A DNA stretch of 64,000 bases, from contig JAKLIG010000001.1 of the NCBI GenBank assembly GCA_022709735.1, positions 20,135 through 84,134 on the forward strand. The letters run 5' to 3'. Positions 1,744-50,632 of the stretch are shown here, one piece after another; position 1 is the stretch's first letter, and the number at the start of each line of letters is the position of its first letter. Origin of the DNA: Patescibacteria group bacterium. GTDB lineage: Bacteria > Patescibacteriota > Minisyncoccia > Moranbacterales > UBA2206. The position numbers and the translations under genes are program-made. The notes beneath the pieces were generated by a model. The model had not been told where the DNA came from. It was given only the letters and a program-made list of their open reading frames with translations, and searched no databases.

Positions 1744-1801
1744 AAAAAATATTTTTTTCACCGATAGTTTTTCTCGACCCCGCACCATTTTTTATTTTCT
1801 G

Positions 1802-1888
1802 CGGAAGCGAGAGGATTCGAACCTCTGGTCCCGTTTCCGAGACAACAGTTTTCAAGACTGTCGCCTTAAACCACTCGGCCACGCTTCC
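1802..1888 (-). tRNA. tRNA-Ser (anticodon UGA), class II
   Basis: Revcomp reads GGAAGCGTGGCCGAGTGGTTTAAGGCGACAGTCTTGAAAACTGTTGTCTCGGAAACGGGACCAGAGGTTCGAATCCTCTCGCTTCCG. Anticodon loop is CUUGAAA. Confidence 0.85.
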
Positions 1889-1904
1889 AGATAAATATTT
1901 ATAA

Positions 1905-1977
1905 TAAAAATGGTGTGGGGCAAGCTGTTCCCTTCCTACCTGCCGGCAGGCAGAAAACCGCTCAGGCACTCTTCCAG
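1905..1977 (-). pseudogene. Degenerate tRNA-Ser 5'-half-like fragment (acceptor + D-arm) followed by an imperfect copy of the 20-bp GC palindrome. Sits immediately 5' of tRNA-Ser(UGA) on the same strand.
   Basis: Minus strand reads GGAAGAGTGCCTGAGCGGTTTTCTGCCTGCCGGCAGGTAGGAAGGG..., about 75% identical to the first 30 nt of tRNA-Ser(UGA), then CTGCCTGCCGGCAGGTAG. No T-arm or matching 3' acceptor. Confidence 0.4.
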
Positions 1978-2852: not shown

Positions 2853-3371
2853 ATGGATATAATTTCACACGGCCTTTGGGGCTCGGCGGCGTTTGGAAGA
2901 AAAAATAAAAAAACTTTTTTGATAGCTTTTCTGATTGGATTGGCGCCGGACATGTTTTCTTTCGGCATCCTTTTTGTTTATAGAATTATTCTTCGTCTTG
3001 GATTTTTGCCAGAGCCTAGCATTTCTTTAGCGCCAGCACACTTCCCGGTGCCGATTTTTGTGTATAGTTTATATAATATAACGCATAGTCTGATTATTTT
3101 TGCTCTATTTTTTGGCGCAATTTGGCTGATATTTAAAAAGCCATTTTGGCCGATTTTAGCTTGGGGACTGCATATTTTAGTGGATATTCCAAGCCATTCT
3201 TTTGATTTTTTCCCGACGCCTTTTCTCTGGCCAATTTCTAATTTTAAATTTGATGGAATAGGATGGGGAAATCCAATCATATTTTTTCCGAATGTGATTT
3301 TGCTACTTGCAGTTTATGGTTTTTTATTTTTGAGAAAAAGAAAAAAGAAAAAAATTATTTCTTCAAACTAA
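2853..3371 (+). CDS. Hypothetical membrane protein (4-5 TM)
   Basis: 172-aa hydrophobic ORF with a Lys-rich C-terminus. Confidence 0.55.
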   Translation: MDIISHGLWGSAAFGRKNKKTFLIAFLIGLAPDMFSFGILFVYRIILRLGFLPEPSISLAPAHFPVPIFVYSLYNITHSLIIFALFFGAIWLIFKKPFWPILAWGLHILVDIPSHSFDFFPTPFLWPISNFKFDGIGWGNPIIFFPNVILLLAVYGFLFLRKRKKKKIISSN

Positions 3372-4303: not shown

Positions 4304-5371
4304 ATGTTTGATTTTAGTTTTGGAAGAAAAAAAGTTTTAGGAATTGATATCGGCGCTTCCTCACTCAAAATAGTAGAATTGGAGCTTCGATCCGGAAAGC
4401 CTTATCTTTCTAATTATGCTTGGATGAAAATTCCGGATATTTCGGAAAAGAATAGCGACACGGGTTCTAATTTCTTTGAAAAAGCCATTCCGGAATATAT
4501 AAAAAAAGTTATTAAAACAGCTAATTTTAAGGCGAAAAAAGCCTATGTCTCTATCCCGTCCTTTGGTGGGCTTATAACGCTTATCGATTTTCCACAAATG
4601 GCGCCGGAAGATATGGAGCCAGCTATAAAATTTGAAGCGCATAAATATATCCCAACCTCTTTGGACGAAGTAGTTATCAGTTGGGAAATTGTGAAAAATG
4701 AAATAGAAAAGGAAAATTCTAACAAAAAAGTGCAAGTTCTTTTAGTAGCCGCTTCAAAAAATAAGGTATTGGCTTATGAAAAAATTATAAAAGATGCCGG
4801 ACTTAAGCTTTTGGGAATCGAAATGGAAAATTTGGCAATGGTTGACTCTTTAGTTGGTAATGATCCTGGCAATTTTATAATTGTAGATATAGGCTATCGC
4901 GTTTGCAATATAATTTATACGGAAAAAGGAATTATTAGAGCTAATAGGAATATTGATGCTGGAGGAGGCGATATTACGAAAACTATTTCTACGAGTTTGG
5001 AAATAACTTCAGAAAGAGCGGAAATAATGAAAATTTCTCAAAAAAATTTCTTCAATATTGAATCCAATCTTAATTTTCCTTCACTTGACCTGATTATTGG
5101 AGAAATATTGAGAATAACGAATGCTCTGCCAAAAAATGAAAATGGCTTGCAAATTGATGCATTAATTCTTTCTGGTGGCACAGCTGATCTCGTAGGTCTT
5201 GAAGGTTTCATTCAAAAAAAAGTTGGGGTAAAAACTATTATTGGCAATCCATTTGGGCGGGTCGGCTATGACAAAAAAAATAGTCTGGCTATAGAAAAAA
5301 TCAAAAACCAATTTCCTGTGGCTATGGGACTGGCGCTTAAGGGGCTGGAAAATATCCGCGAAAATAAATAA
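4304..5371 (+). CDS. pilM: Type IV pilus assembly protein PilM (actin-like ATPase fold)
   Basis: 355 aa. N-terminus VLGIDIGASSLKIVELE. Size and position (first gene of a pilMNO-like set) match PilM. Confidence 0.85.
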   Translation: MFDFSFGRKKVLGIDIGASSLKIVELELRSGKPYLSNYAWMKIPDISEKNSDTGSNFFEKAIPEYIKKVIKTANFKAKKAYVSIPSFGGLITLIDFPQMAPEDMEPAIKFEAHKYIPTSLDEVVISWEIVKNEIEKENSNKKVQVLLVAASKNKVLAYEKIIKDAGLKLLGIEMENLAMVDSLVGNDPGNFIIVDIGYRVCNIIYTEKGIIRANRNIDAGGGDITKTISTSLEITSERAEIMKISQKNFFNIESNLNFPSLDLIIGEILRITNALPKNENGLQIDALILSGGTADLVGLEGFIQKKVGVKTIIGNPFGRVGYDKKNSLAIEKIKNQFPVAMGLALKGLENIRENK

Positions 5372-21219: not shown

Positions 21220-21248
21220 TTGACAGTCGATATTTATATAGTTAGAAT
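21220..21248 (+). promoter_or_regulatory. Consensus sigma-70-type promoter (TTGACA-17 bp-TAGAAT) driving the tRNA cluster
   Basis: ttgaca gtcgatatttatatagt tagaat. Identical hexamers and spacing to the rRNA promoter at 38005. Confidence 0.55.
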
Positions 21249-21288
21249 GTTTAGTAGCGTCTGATTTAGACGATATTTTGAAATTATA

Positions 21289-21373
21289 GCGGGGTAGTCC
21301 CGCTATGGCGGGACGGGTGGCTCACCTGCCTGCCGGCAGGCAGGTAATCCCAGGTCGTGGGTTCAAATCAAAA
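21289..21373 (+). pseudogene. Degenerate tRNA-Met-like copy: D-arm replaced by hairpin GTCCCGC-tatg-GCGGGAC, anticodon loop replaced by the perfect 20-bp palindrome, 3' acceptor missing
   Basis: GCGGGGTAG|tcccgctatggcgggac|GGGTGGCTCA|cctgcctgccggcaggcagg|taaTCCCAGGTCGTGGGTTCAAATCa aligns segment by segment to the intact tRNA-Met at 21626-21697. Confidence 0.45.
21325..21344. repeat. Perfect 20-bp palindrome cctgcctgccggcaggcagg (copy 2 of 3)
   Basis: Self-complementary. Identical copy at 49669-49688, imperfect copy at 1935-1954. Confidence 0.85.
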
Positions 21374-21386
21374 AAACATAAATTTT

Positions 21387-21662
21387 ATGTATGTGATATA
21401 CGCTTTATTTTTTAAAAATATAAAAAGAGTGTATGTTGGGATGACTAGTAAATATAATCAAAGAATGGAAGAACATAAAAAAGGCAAAACACGCTCAACG
21501 AAAAATAGAGGAGAATTTATATCAAAAATAATTGAGAAATGCGAAACAAGAAGAGAGGCGAGATTAAGGGAAAAATATTGGAAATCTGGTTGTGGAAAGG
21601 AAGAATTAAAAAAGAAATATTATAGCGGGGTAGAGCAGTCTGGTAGCTCGGGTGGCTCATAA
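21387..21662 (+). CDS. Small GIY-YIG nuclease-domain protein (YhbQ/UPF0213-like). 3' end of the ORF runs into tRNA-Met.
   Basis: MYVIYALFFKNIKRVYVGMTSKYNQRMEEHKKGK...RREARLREKYWKS matches the GIY-(10-11)-YVG...R..EH..G...E pattern. The frame continues 37 nt into the tRNA before a stop, so the true C-terminus is uncertain. Confidence 0.65.
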   Translation: MYVIYALFFKNIKRVYVGMTSKYNQRMEEHKKGKTRSTKNRGEFISKIIEKCETRREARLREKYWKSGCGKEELKKKYYSGVEQSGSSGGS

Positions 21663-21697
21663 CCACCAGGTCGTGGGTTCAAATCCCACCCCCGCAA
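21626..21697 (+). tRNA. tRNA with CAU anticodon (elongator Met or Ile2/lysidine type)
   Basis: GCGGGGTAGAGCAGTCTGGTAGCTCGGGTGGCTCATAACCACCAGGTCGTGGGTTCAAATCCCACCCCCGCA. Confidence 0.85.
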
Positions 21698-21714
21698 CAA
21701 TTTGTCTTCTTAAG

Positions 21715-21902
21715 GCAGGGTAGCTCAGACTTGTCCCCCACCAAAATGCCGGCGTAGCTCAGTTGGTTAGAGCGTGGGACTCATAAGCCCAAGGTCAGTG
21801 GTTCAACTCCACTCGCCGGTACCAGGCATTTTGGTGGGGGATGAAGTTAGAGCACAGCCTTCATAAGGCTGGGGTCGTGGGTCCGAGTCCCACCCCTGCT
21901 AC
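21715..21902 (+). tRNA. Candidate split/nested tRNA (anticodon CAU). Its D-loop carries a 111-nt insertion that is a complete tRNA flanked by a perfect 17-bp inverted repeat.
   Basis: 5' part GGCAGGG-TA-GCTCAG, 3' part GTTAGAGC-A-CAGCC-TTCATAA-GGCTG-GGGTC-GTGGG-TCCGAGT-CCCAC-CCCTGCT-A. The acceptor halves pair (G1-U72 wobble). The D-stem GCTC/GAGC is separated by tcccccaccaaaatgcc-[inner tRNA]-ggcattttggtggggga. Confidence 0.45.
21749..21825 (+). tRNA. tRNA-fMet-like (anticodon CAU, GGG/CCC in anticodon stem), CCA encoded; nested inside the preceding tRNA
   Basis: GCCGGCG-TA-GCTCAGTTGGTTAGAGC-G-TGGGA-CTCATAA-GCCCA-AGGTC-AGTGGTTCAACTCCACT-CGCCGGT-A-CCA. Three consecutive G:C pairs in the anticodon stem are an initiator hallmark. 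Confidence 0.8.
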
Positions 21903-21917
21903 AAAATTTTTAAAATG

Positions 21918-21991
21918 GGGGCGTAGCTCAGTTGGTTAGAGCGACTGCCTGTCACGCAGTAGGTCACCGGTTCGAGTCCGGCCGTCCCCGC
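21918..21991 (+). tRNA. tRNA-Asp (anticodon GUC)
   Basis: GGGGGCG-TA-GCTCAGTTGGTTAGAGC-G-ACTGC-CTGTCAC-GCAGT-AGGTC-ACCGGTTCGAGTCCGGC-CGTCCCC-G. Confidence 0.85.
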
Positions 21992-22138
21992 AAAATTTGC
22001 CTTGCTAAAGGCATTTTTTTATGGTTTTTGAACTTGCTAAAAACTTGCAAAAGCACTATAATTATAAAGTAAGAAATAAACACGGATAATTGATCTGGAT
22101 GTTTATTTTTTGAAAATAGCCCAATAAATTAATTTAAC

Positions 22139-22510
22139 ATGACACTCAAGGCCTACATTTGGGGAATGCGCGTTATCACGCTTTTTTCGCTTTTGGCGCT
22201 AGGAGCCGTCATTATTTTTGTTGACCCGGAAGGTTCCGGAGCAATAGGAATATTTTTGTTTTATCTGGCCACTTTTTTTGTTTTGAGCGGAATATTTAAT
22301 TTATTTTTGCTTTTTGTTCGAAGAAAACTTTTGGGTTCGGAGCTTGCGGCAAAAAATATTGAATTGAGTTTCCGCCAAGGAATGCTTATTGCCATTATGA
22401 TTTTAGGCATAATGATTCTCCAAAGTTTTCGAGTATTGATTTGGTGGGACGCTTTGCTGGTAGTGGCGGGAGTGTTTTTGATAGAGTTATATTTTTTGTC
22501 TAGAAATTGA
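22139..22510 (+). CDS. Small integral membrane protein (4 TM), hypothetical
   Basis: 123-aa hydrophobic ORF. Confidence 0.55.
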   Translation: MTLKAYIWGMRVITLFSLLALGAVIIFVDPEGSGAIGIFLFYLATFFVLSGIFNLFLLFVRRKLLGSELAAKNIELSFRQGMLIAIMILGIMILQSFRVLIWWDALLVVAGVFLIELYFLSRN

Positions 22511-38457: not shown

Positions 38458-41668
<3,211 letters not shown>

Positions 41669-41817
41669 TTATCTCTCTTGATTCAACTGACAACTCATAA
41701 CTGACAACTTGCAACTTAATTGTTGTTTGTTGAAAGTTGAGAGTTGAAAGTTGATATAGTTAGCAGTTAGAAATTACTAAATTAGCATTTTTTAAAGTTA
41801 GTTAAGAGAGCATTATT

Positions 41818-49504: not shown

Positions 49505-50632
49505 ATGAAAATTGGCATTGATGGCTCGCGAGCCTTCCTAAAACAAAGAACGGGCATTGAAGAATATTCCTATCAGGTAATAAAGCACTTGAGAGAAAAA
49601 TTAAAAACATCTCAAGTTGTTTTGTATTTGCGAAAAAATCAGGAAGTTGATTTTGAATTGCCGGAAAACCTGCCTGCCGGCAGGCAGGGTTGGAAAATCA
49701 AAATAATAAAATGGCCGAGATTTTGGACGCAAATCGGACTATCTTTTGAATTATTTTTTCATCCAGTTGATGTGCTATTCATCCCGGCCCATATATTGCC
49801 ACTATATCATCCGAAGAAATCAATAGTTACTATTCATGGCTTGGAATTTGAGGTTACAAAAGAAGCCTATTCTTTTTGGGAGAAAATATATATGCATCTT
49901 TCGATAAAAAAATCCTGTTTTTGGGCGAGCAAAGTTATCGCGGTTTCAAAAAATACAAAAGAAGACCTGATTGAATTTTATAAAGTACCAGAAAAAAAGA
50001 TCGAGGTGATATATGAAGGAGTATCAACTTGTCATGCCGAACTCGTTTCGGCATCTCATAAGATCCTGAAACAAGTTCAGGATGACAATGCCAAATACCT
50101 ATTATTTATTGGTCGATTAGAAAAACGAAAAAATGTTGAAGGCATAATTGAAGCATATAAAATTTTAAAAGAAAAATATAATATACCTCACAGTTTAGTA
50201 TTGGTTGGTTCGCCTGGATATGGATATGAAAGTATAAAATTGAAAATTGAGAATTGTTTGAAAATTGAAAATTGTAAATTGAAAATTATAGAGCTTGGTT
50301 ATATTGAAGAAGCAGTCAAGTGGCAATTATTGCATGATGCTGATGTATTCTTATTCCCATCATTCTATGAAGGTTTTGGTTTGCCGATTTTGGAAGCGCA
50401 AGTGCAAGGTGTTCCGGTTGTCACTTCCAATGTTTCTTCGCTTCCGGAAATCGGCGGAGACAGCGTGGCCTACTGCACACCCGGAGAACCAATAAGTATC
50501 GCTGATTCGACCTATAAGATTTTAAGCGACGAAAATTTTAGAAATGGTATAATAAAAAAGGGTTATGAAAATGTAAAAAAATTCAGTTGGGATAAGTGTG
50601 CGGAAGAAATCGCTAAATTATTAATAAATTGA
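49505..50632 (+). CDS. Glycosyltransferase family 4 (GT1-fold, RfaG-like) with two in-frame repeat-derived insertions
   Basis: C-terminal GT4 block FLFPSFYEGFGLPILEAQVQGVPVVTS. Contains the 20-bp palindrome (49669-49688, encodes LPAGRQG) and a TTGAAAATTG repeat stretch (50238-50288, encodes KLKIENCLKIENCKLKI). Confidence 0.85.
   Translation: MKIGIDGSRAFLKQRTGIEEYSYQVIKHLREKLKTSQVVLYLRKNQEVDFELPENLPAGRQGWKIKIIKWPRFWTQIGLSFELFFHPVDVLFIPAHILPLYHPKKSIVTIHGLEFEVTKEAYSFWEKIYMHLSIKKSCFWASKVIAVSKNTKEDLIEFYKVPEKKIEVIYEGVSTCHAELVSASHKILKQVQDDNAKYLLFIGRLEKRKNVEGIIEAYKILKEKYNIPHSLVLVGSPGYGYESIKLKIENCLKIENCKLKIIELGYIEEAVKWQLLHDADVFLFPSFYEGFGLPILEAQVQGVPVVTSNVSSLPEIGGDSVAYCTPGEPISIADSTYKILSDENFRNGIIKKGYENVKKFSWDKCAEEIAKLLIN
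49669..49688. repeat. Perfect 20-bp palindrome cctgcctgccggcaggcagg (copy 3), in-frame within the GT4 CDS
   Basis: Identical to 21325-21344. Confidence 0.85.
50238..50288. repeat. ATTGAAA mini-repeat stretch in-frame within the GT4 CDS
   Basis: ttgaaaattgagaattgtttgaaaattgaaaattgtaaattgaaaatt. Confidence 0.65.

Follow-up and report, generated by a model that had tools for sequence, protein, structure and literature searches.

A complete tRNA-CAU gene nested within the D-loop of a second tRNA-CAU gene in a Moranbacteria tRNA operon, and a recurrent class of such loci in metagenomes

A 64,000-nucleotide stretch of a Patescibacteria genome (NCBI GenBank assembly GCA_022709735.1, contig JAKLIG010000001.1, positions 20,135 to 84,134 of the forward strand; referred to here as the window, in whose own numbering all window positions are given) contains a complete tRNA gene with a CAU anticodon that lies inside the D-loop of another tRNA gene with the same anticodon. 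The inner gene is bracketed by a perfect inverted repeat, predicted to form a long stalk in the transcript, and short conserved junctions connect this stalk with the two halves of the outer gene. The account that we regard as moderately probable is that a stalk-flanked elongator tRNA-Met cassette was inserted into a resident elongator tRNA-Met gene, that the inner gene is the one that works, and that the outer gene, having become redundant, is starting to decay. The locus is composed of the following parts:

21714-21728, forward strand: 5′ part of the outer tRNA-CAU, GGCAGGG-TA-GCTC-AG (acceptor 5′ strand, U8 and A9, D-stem 5′ strand, A14 and G15), from the sequence and ARAGORN
21729-21733, forward strand: 5′ junction ACTTG (family consensus NCTTG), conserved among nested loci
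21734-21750, forward strand: stalk 5′ arm TCCCCCACCAAAATGCC, whose final 3 nt are nucleotides 1-3 of the inner tRNA; perfect 17-bp inverted repeat, covariation
21748-21824, forward strand: inner, complete elongator-type tRNA-CAU with encoded CCA, the presumed working gene; ARAGORN, Rfam tRNA model at 67.4 bits, no violation at invariant positions
21825-21841, forward strand: stalk 3′ arm GGCATTTTGGTGGGGGA; inverted repeat, covariation
21842-21845, forward strand: 3′ junction TGAA (family consensus TGAA/TAAA), conserved among nested loci
21846-21901, forward strand: 3′ part of the outer tRNA-CAU, with D-loop GTTA, D-stem 3′ strand GAGC, CAU anticodon arm, T-arm, acceptor 3′ strand and A73, from the sequence and ARAGORN

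The insert amounts to 112 nt, comprising the tRNA, its stalk and the TGAA junction, and relative to a canonical D-loop of the form AG-TTG-GTTA it sits between G18 and G19. The two arms are 17 nt each and 100% complementary. With TTG in place of the insert, the outer gene is recognized by ARAGORN as a normal tRNA-CAU, and the unconstrained minimum-free-energy fold of 21710-21905 contains the outer cloverleaf, the long stalk and the inner cloverleaf. The energy of this fold is -97.1 kcal/mol (z = -6.7), a value reached by none of 200 shuffled sequences. The initial annotation of this DNA had proposed a tRNA nested in the D-loop of another, a perfect 17-bp inverted repeat extended by ACTT/AAGT, and outer halves that make a canonical cloverleaf once the insert is looped out. 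The nesting is borne out by the sequence, ARAGORN, Rfam and the fold; both the repeat and its extension are present, and the outer cloverleaf is intact by ARAGORN and fold alike. Only the boundaries had to be shifted by one base, from 21715-21902 to 21714-21901. Sequence and fold together give the junction the order D-stem, 3 × 3 internal loop (AGA/UUA), the pairs CUU/AAG, one bulged G on the 3′ strand, and stalk. Inspected by eye, this junction does not fit a kink-turn, a hammerhead-like core, an integron core-site or a bulge-helix-bulge motif.

The architecture is far beyond chance, since it recurs, with a covarying stalk, at no fewer than 12 other metagenomic loci. These were found by scanning metagenomes for the three-motif pattern GTAGCTCAG-N10-40-TAGCTCAG-N65-95-GTTAGAGC, in which a match between anticodons is not required. 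The scan yielded 24 loci, about 15 of which are true nests (12 distinct), the other nine being degenerate tandem repeats. Nest types include Val-in-Val, Met-in-Met and Ile-in-Ile, and in every nest the inner and outer anticodons are the same (Val-GAC, Val-CAC, Val-UAC, CAU and Ile-GAU). The D-loop junctions are likewise shared, of the form GCTCAG-(N)CTTG-YCCCC ... GGGGR-TGAA/TAAA-GTTAGAGC, with L222 and L223 as exceptions (loci fetched for comparison are denoted by L numbers). Wherever the genomic context is informative it is Patescibacteria-like (FtsH, TilS, XerC, LigA and others), except at L223, which comes from an organism of 67% G+C and has a differing junction.

Further nests were encountered inside the fetched loci, in L218 at 4441 and in L225 at 562-638, as well as around a tRNA-Ser gene of the window itself:

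1778-1975, reverse strand: second, eroded nest with tRNA-Ser(UGA) at 1801-1888 and arms CCCCACACCATTTTT (1906-1920) and AAAAATGGTGCGGGG (1778-1792), from the sequence

The arms of this nest have one mismatch and carry the same stalk motif around a class II tRNA, and ahead of the nest lie CAG-CTTG and a Ser-tRNA 5′ fragment (1958-1975) that carries a GC-rich palindrome (1935-1953). The tRNA types turn over between genomes: the outer gene of L205 resembles the inner gene of L204, the outer gene of L221 resembles the inner gene of L225b, and the inner gene of L217 resembles the outer gene of the window. Such turnover is consistent with the copy in use at any one time being invaded again and again.

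Viral contigs contain no match to the three-motif pattern. A reduced pattern of two motifs (GTAGCTCAG N10-40 GTAGCTCAG) was discarded as too noisy, as it matches coding repeats and hits at least 120 stretches in viral contigs. The junction motif GGGGRTRAAGTTAGAGC has 20 matches in viral contigs, all of them chance occurrences in coding sequence without a tRNA, and there is thus no sign in this material of phages carrying the cassette.

Two of the fetched loci have peculiarities of their own. L218 harbors two nests on one contig (4405-4535 and 8575-8760), both of which have the arms CCCCGTTACTT / AAGTAACGGGG. The inner genes agree fully in acceptor and T stems, while their anticodon arms differ (Val-GAC and Val-UAC), and the 5′ part of the outer gene in the first nest is the same as that of the inner gene in the second. 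L225 was considered as a three-level "Russian doll" and turned out to contain a 41-nt tandem duplication of the 5′ junction. The duplicated unit, TAGCTCAG-TCYTG-CCCCNCACCACTT-GGGCTCG, lies on the reverse strand at about 1670-1745 and probably arose by slippage between repeated D-arm sequences.

The inner and outer genes of the nests are not equally well preserved. Genes were scored for the invariant positions U33, G53, U54, U55, C56, R57, A58 and C61 and for stem pairing. All 16 inner genes are without a violation at invariant positions and have clean stems, whereas the outer genes extend from clean to nearly lost. A single invariant base is changed in the outer genes of the window (T-loop TCCGAGT, in which U55 is replaced by C at position 21883), L205 (U33C) and L208 (R57U). 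The outer genes of L204/L211, where a palindrome occupies the T-loop, and of L213, L217, L222, L225 and L226 are wrecked, and those of the nests in L218 (4441), L225 (562-638) and the tRNA-Ser region of the window are reduced to stumps.

Orthologous loci identify the resident gene. The order LigA, GatC, GatA, a 179-amino-acid protein, tRNAs, a 123-amino-acid protein and GyrB is common to 10 loci, and eight of these (L002, L004, L012, L228, L231, L233, L235 and L257) carry an initiator tRNA, one intact CAU tRNA of a class that we denote X, and tRNA-Asp. In its acceptor and T stems, the outer gene of the window has 0 differences at 24 positions from the un-nested orthologues of L004 and L231, while the inner gene differs at 8 or more of the 24 positions from every other tRNA compared. 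The outer gene is thus the resident and the inner gene the incomer. One further orthologous locus, L217, is nested. Its outer gene is of the resident X type, with one or two differences from un-nested relatives, and has its anticodon loop destroyed by a 22-nt GC hairpin; compared with the window, its stalk has undergone compensatory changes.

Conservation of the stalk was assessed in an end-anchored alignment of 14 distinct stalks. Stalks of the class are 11-17 bp long and often continue for 3 bp into the inner tRNA, at its positions 1-3. Standard pairs occupy 95.5% of the cells, compared with 66% after shuffling and about 50% when the partners are slid against each other. Both sides have changed in 9 of 11 stalk pairs, and the covariation score is 0.744 versus 0.187. 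Judged from these alignments, the stalk is under selection. Stalk (12-16 bp) and junctions are intact also where the outer gene is dead (L217, L225, L226, L213 and L211), which assigns their role to the inner gene or to the cassette, not to the outer halves. In being a leader-trailer helix that abuts a mature RNA and is kept by covariation, the stalk resembles an RNase III-type processing stalk.

With respect to the identity of the nested tRNAs, our data do not lend support to the suggestion in the initial annotation that the inner gene is initiator-like. Three initiator features were considered, namely a 1 × 72 mismatch, A11:U24, and three G:C pairs at 29-31/39-41. The inner tRNA has instead a paired G1-U72, C11:G24 and not A11:U24, G:C pairs at G28-G30:C40-C42 and not at G29-G31, and an A31 × G39 mismatch that is common to the elongator-position genes of L002 and L012; the real initiator gene is located upstream, at 21624-21698. 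The CAU tRNAs of the fetched Patescibacteria loci form three classes: initiators, an Ile2 type (GGGACCA...GGCGA-CTCATAA-TCGCT; the example in L205, at 4301, is 90-92% identical to E. coli genes annotated as tRNA-Ile), and class X, found at the one elongator position that separates initiator and Asp. The window's two nested genes are of class X, clustering with the single elongator-position gene of the relatives, and an Ile2-type CAU tRNA is not present at this locus, the part of the genome covered being 64 kb. The argument that the locus supplies the three CAU tRNAs needed by a bacterium only if the outer gene is functional consequently fails, since the two nested genes fall into one class and the Ile2 type is a different sequence. 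Comparison with E. coli gives clear assignments, by BLAST or by global identity, for the Ile2-type and initiator classes alone; among the best-listed BLAST matches the inner and outer genes hit tRNA-Thr and tRNA-Val at 74-82%, which is non-discriminating, and their global identities are ambiguous too.

Two other features of the nested genes were considered as clues to their origin. The encoded CCA was dropped as a mark of a foreign or retro-copied inner gene, as the tRNA-Pro of the window also encodes CCA. The identical anticodon arms of inner and outer gene might mark a chimeric insertion, but anticodon arms of this class evolve slowly between relatives, and gene conversion is possible too.

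Based on these data, the following course of events may be envisaged. The cassette would consist of a complete elongator-type tRNA-Met(CAU), a leader/trailer stalk of 14-17 bp and the short conserved junctions (NCTTG ... TGAA), and would have entered between D-loop nucleotides 18 and 19 of a resident tRNA-Met. The operon would be transcribed as a single RNA in which the stalk sets the inner tRNA apart as a folding domain of its own, and a 5′ cut by RNase P together with 3′ processing would release the inner tRNA as the working tRNA-Met. The outer RNA would be without function; because the contiguity of G18 and G19 is lost and a redundant partner is present, the outer gene would be free to drift, and the window, with its U55C change, would represent the first stage of this process. 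The matching of anticodons is best explained by survivorship, as breaking an essential and usually single-copy tRNA gene would be tolerated only when the lost function comes with the insert.

Several observations weigh against this account. In the window, decay of the outer gene depends on a single substitution, that of one invariant base, and all of its stems are intact. At five loci (L206/L219, L218, L221 and L223) the outer gene is clean, and that of L210 has one acceptor mismatch. Between the outer stems of L218 and L221 there are three compensatory pairs and no disruptive change, a pattern that would result either from selection on a functional outer gene after nesting, or from independent entry into orthologues that had already diverged. 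It is equally conceivable that the conserved nucleotides of the junctions form part of the structure of an interrupted D-loop that still works. Neither insertion machinery nor a target-site duplication nor a donor copy of the inner gene was found at the loci examined. Finally, the assignment of both nested genes to elongator tRNA-Met is made by elimination and by similarity to relatives, and not with a validated isotype model. A combined scenario, in which selfish cassettes of Patescibacteria enter between G18 and G19 of a cognate tRNA gene with a replacement tRNA and, once RNase P and 3′ processing have excised the inner tRNA, the outer halves serve in at least some hosts, possibly including this one, as a working, aminoacylated two-piece tRNA, appears decidedly unlikely to us; if true, the two-piece outer tRNA would represent the first case of a natural split tRNA among Bacteria, arising without a splicing endonuclease or ligase.

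Four other explanations of the locus were weighed. That the assembler merged reads of two similar tRNA genes into a chimera might be suspected given that short exact D-arm repeats can mislead assemblers and GTAGCTCAG is present three times within 200 bp. However, a region of 401 bp is 100% identical in two long contigs, ENA ERZ795054 NODE_27 (326 kb) and JGI 3300009776 Ga0116154_10000036 (264 kb), which were assembled separately, though possibly from shared reads, and this makes an assembly chimera very unlikely. A chimera would furthermore not yield a perfect 17-bp inverted repeat with family-typical junctions, and more than 12 unrelated assemblies contain loci of this architecture, so that we give an artefact hardly any credence. 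Intron-like maturation, in which stalk and inner tRNA are removed and the outer exons joined by an RtcB-type or a 5′-P/3′-OH RNA ligase to give two continuous tRNAs per segment, would account for the position of the insert exactly between G18 and G19, where precise deletion restores a usable D-loop (AGACUUG|GUUA), and the maturation of ectopic introns in the D-loop and of tRNAs that are split or permuted is known from archaea and red algae (PMC3218864, PMC3728597). The organism here is a bacterium, with NAD-dependent LigA, GatCAB and bacterial 23S rRNA, and the junction does not form the bulge-helix-bulge of those systems, in which each strand has a 3-nt bulge and 4 bp separate the two: here the exon-side 3-nt bulge lies opposite an unpaired AG(N), and the strand that carries the distal bulge is the wrong one. 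An Rfam E-value scan of 21300-22300 gave tRNAs and noise, and neither a group I or group II intron nor any other intron family was found in the 112-nt insert. Cuts by RNase P and RNase Z would moreover leave the stalk arms on the exons, and the outer genes decay; we consider maturation of this kind very improbable.

The initial annotation favored a functional bacterial split tRNA. In such a model the inner tRNA would be excised by RNase P and 3′ processing, and the outer halves, held by acceptor stem, D-stem and the approximately 20-bp stalk, would act as a second, two-piece tRNA-Met from whose elbow the helix would project. That the halves would hold together once the inner tRNA is removed agrees with modeling, the predicted energy being -66.1 kcal/mol for the cofold and -36.5 kcal/mol for the halves apart, a gain of about 30 kcal/mol. 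The outer cloverleaf of the window is fully intact and predicted without constraints, several outer genes elsewhere are intact, the acceptor and T stems of the outer genes of L218 and L221 show compensatory changes, and the conserved junction CUUG / UGAA-G would leave the helix flanked by a G on both sides, at the places of G18 and G19. The suggestion that the outer gene is needed as a split tRNA is nonetheless at odds with the comparative data: about half of the outer genes, and never the inner ones, are damaged or dead, the stalk and junctions are kept where the outer gene is dead, and the outer gene of the window has C in place of the invariant U55, the partner of G18. The elbow of a tRNA is a site of contact with the ribosome and RNase P, and a helix of about 20 bp would sit at these contacts. 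Since the inner tRNA carries the identical anticodon, the outer one would also be dispensable, and altogether a functional split tRNA seems unlikely.

A further reading concerns the stalk alone and is compatible with the outer gene being a relic. It holds that the inverted repeat acts mainly at the DNA level, as the terminal inverted repeats of a small non-autonomous element with tRNA cargo that is similar to a miniature inverted-repeat transposable element (MITE), and not as an RNA stalk. Terminal inverted repeats are present, perfect over 17 bp in the window, and related arms occur at other loci, where the outer 9-10 bp (YCCCCCACC / GGTGGGGGR) and the junctions are near-identical across tRNA species and organisms. 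The two nests of L218 have identical arms around different Val isoacceptors, and a second copy of the arm motif is found 20 kb away in the window beside the tRNA-Ser gene, so that the window and L218 have two arm-bearing copies each. The turnover of inner and outer types between genomes and the presence of other palindromic elements in tRNA loops and in an open reading frame (ORF) of this genome point in the same direction. On the other hand, no transposase is associated with the loci, and a consistent target-site duplication is absent, the flanks being mostly YG...TG and elsewhere CG...TA and TG...TA; a 2-bp TG duplication was rejected as inconsistent across loci. In old nests with a dead outer gene the arms stay complementary by way of compensatory changes, indicative of selection at the host (RNA) level, and the inner part of each arm is fitted to pair with nucleotides 1-3 of its own cargo tRNA. 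A mainly DNA-level role of the arms is a possibility that we hold to be doubtful.

To our knowledge, RNase III-type processing stalks are known for 16S and 23S rRNA and not for single tRNAs. The leader-trailer stalks of rRNA operons, which are RNase III substrates, resemble the present one in being long helices that flank a mature stable RNA and are kept by compensatory change, but differ in flanking 16S and 23S rRNA, whereas here a single tRNA is flanked and the role of RNase III is putative. Small palindromic gene invaders are exemplified by the Rickettsia palindromic elements and the mitochondrial GC clusters. They are short hairpin repeats in loops of structured RNAs and in frame in ORFs, as is the GC palindrome of this genome, but they have no cargo gene, whereas the cassette carries a tRNA.

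Some mycobacteriophages follow a disrupt-and-complement strategy, tRNA-dependent lysogeny (Guerrero-Bustamante and Hatfull 2024, PMC10865867). As in that system, the cargo tRNA matches the disrupted target, with the interruption here in the D-loop and identical anticodons in all nests. The phage system involves a whole prophage, which has a tyrosine integrase and, at the tRNA gene, an attP/attB core (PMC10865867), whereas the present insert is 112 nt long, lacks an ORF, is always located in the D-loop between nucleotides 18 and 19, and has a covarying stalk. No integrase or att core of the cassette was identified, and no integrase is consistently adjacent to the loci. The disrupted tRNA genes of archaea and red algae include ectopic and multiple introns as well as split and permuted tRNAs (PMC3218864, PMC3728597, PMC4033280). 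They share with the nests the non-canonical interruption, including that of the D-loop, flanking complementarity that joins the halves, and related interrupters in different tRNAs. Their maturation, however, requires a bulge-helix-bulge along with splicing endonuclease and ligase, and it is the functional gene that is interrupted. The nests occur in a bacterial host without a bulge-helix-bulge, a whole tRNA with matching anticodon forms the interruption, and decay tends to affect the gene that it interrupts. Bacterial tRNA genes, including those of Patescibacteria, are interrupted by group I and rarely group II introns, in one case by a group II intron in the D-loop (PMC13011429). The host phylum is the same, and in both cases interrupted tRNA genes are missed by standard annotation, but these introns are self-splicing ribozymes of about 250 nt or longer that reside mostly in the anticodon loop, whereas no Rfam intron family is found here.

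In agreement with the initial annotation, which knew of no bacterial tRNA inside the D-loop of another, full-text literature searches, including the 2026 survey of Patescibacteria tRNA introns (PMC13011429), returned no published description of a tRNA gene nested in this way, and the tRNA-in-tRNA design appears to be undescribed. The cassette would be the smallest known insertion that neutralizes its own damage by a spare copy of the gene it breaks, and essential, single-copy tRNA genes of reduced genomes would pass through a cycle in which they are invaded, replaced and left to decay. Around single tRNAs, the stalk and junctions, conserved and covarying, provide a signal for processing or mobility that can be tested, and if any outer gene is active, the origin and function of split tRNAs outside Archaea become directly testable. 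The system would be of a new kind if the outer RNA is functional or if the cassette is an autonomous class of mobile element. Standard tRNA finders see the inner gene alone, so that nested and relic tRNAs of Patescibacteria are invisible to them and tRNA censuses can be misread in both directions.

The window belongs to Candidatus Moranbacteria (Patescibacteria, Parcubacteria), as placed by GyrB and neighboring proteins, and its visible genes are bacterial (NAD-dependent LigA, GatCAB, GyrB and bacterial 23S rRNA). The nest is part of a tRNA operon with the order promoter, initiator, Met, Asp, terminator, the other elements of which are:

21220-21248, forward strand: sigma-70-type promoter TTGACA-17-TAGAAT, from a scan, 11 of 12 consensus positions
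21288-21369, forward strand: decayed initiator tRNA copy with a hairpin in place of the D-arm and a 20-nt GC palindrome that splits the anticodon loop (CTCA|...|TAA), ending in the T-loop; read and aligned to the intact initiator
21387-21662, forward strand: GIY-YIG nuclease ORF between the decayed and intact initiator copies, its 3′ end overlapping the intact initiator; Pfam PF01541, E = 4e-12
21624-21698, forward strand: the operon's real initiator tRNA-CAU (A1 × A72 mismatch, A11:U24, initiator D-arm); ARAGORN, Rfam 62.1 bits, clusters with the initiators of relatives
21917-21991, forward strand: tRNA-Asp(GUC), the last gene of the operon; ARAGORN, Rfam
21998-22013, forward strand: intrinsic terminator-like hairpin followed by a T-run, from a scan

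The related locus L228 has the same promoter and leader directly ahead of the initiator tRNA. From the sequence it looks as if the GIY-YIG gene was inserted into the initiator gene with duplication of tRNA positions 1 to about 60; the gene, 90 nt upstream, belongs to this separate insertion. The genes that lie between the same three tRNAs differ among relatives and encode a LAGLIDADG protein, a helix-turn-helix (HTH) protein, a GIY-YIG protein or a serine recombinase; they are located at 3276-3935 in L228, 3229-3906 in L231, about 2990-3250 in L004 and 3433-5043 in L233. That relatives carry different nuclease- or recombinase-like genes here suggests that mobile genes land preferentially in the tRNA operon. 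With the GIY-YIG gene and decayed initiator of the window, the LAGLIDADG, HTH and serine recombinase genes of the relatives, and the GC palindromes, the operon is a hotspot for invasive DNA.

The GC-rich palindrome CCTGCCTGCCGGCAGGCAGG has three copies in the window, where 0.2 are expected. They are at 1933-1956, in the Ser-tRNA fragment, at 21319-21350, in the anticodon loop of the pseudo-initiator, and at 49666-49691, in frame in a protein ORF (...ELPENLPAGRQGWKI...). In L204/L211 this palindrome occupies the T-loop of the outer tRNA-Val, which is dead. Small hairpins of a second family, TCCGCC-NNN-GGCGGA, often follow GGCGGA and are present in L233 at 3280-3345 (the same in L234), in L223 at 4420-4463, in the outer anticodon loop of L217 and at the 3′ end of L225. 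In L233, the closest relative, two such hairpins are in the D-loop of a broken tRNA-Asp 5′ fragment, which is followed by an intact copy of Asp and the gene for a large serine recombinase.

Intervening sequences and introns in 23S rRNA are common in Patescibacteria. The 23S rRNA match of the window (38465-41678, forward strand) spans 3214 nt against a model of 2925 positions, that is, about 290 nt extra, and encloses a 28-nt inverted repeat (39773-39800 / 39855-39882) that may belong to an intervening sequence or intron.

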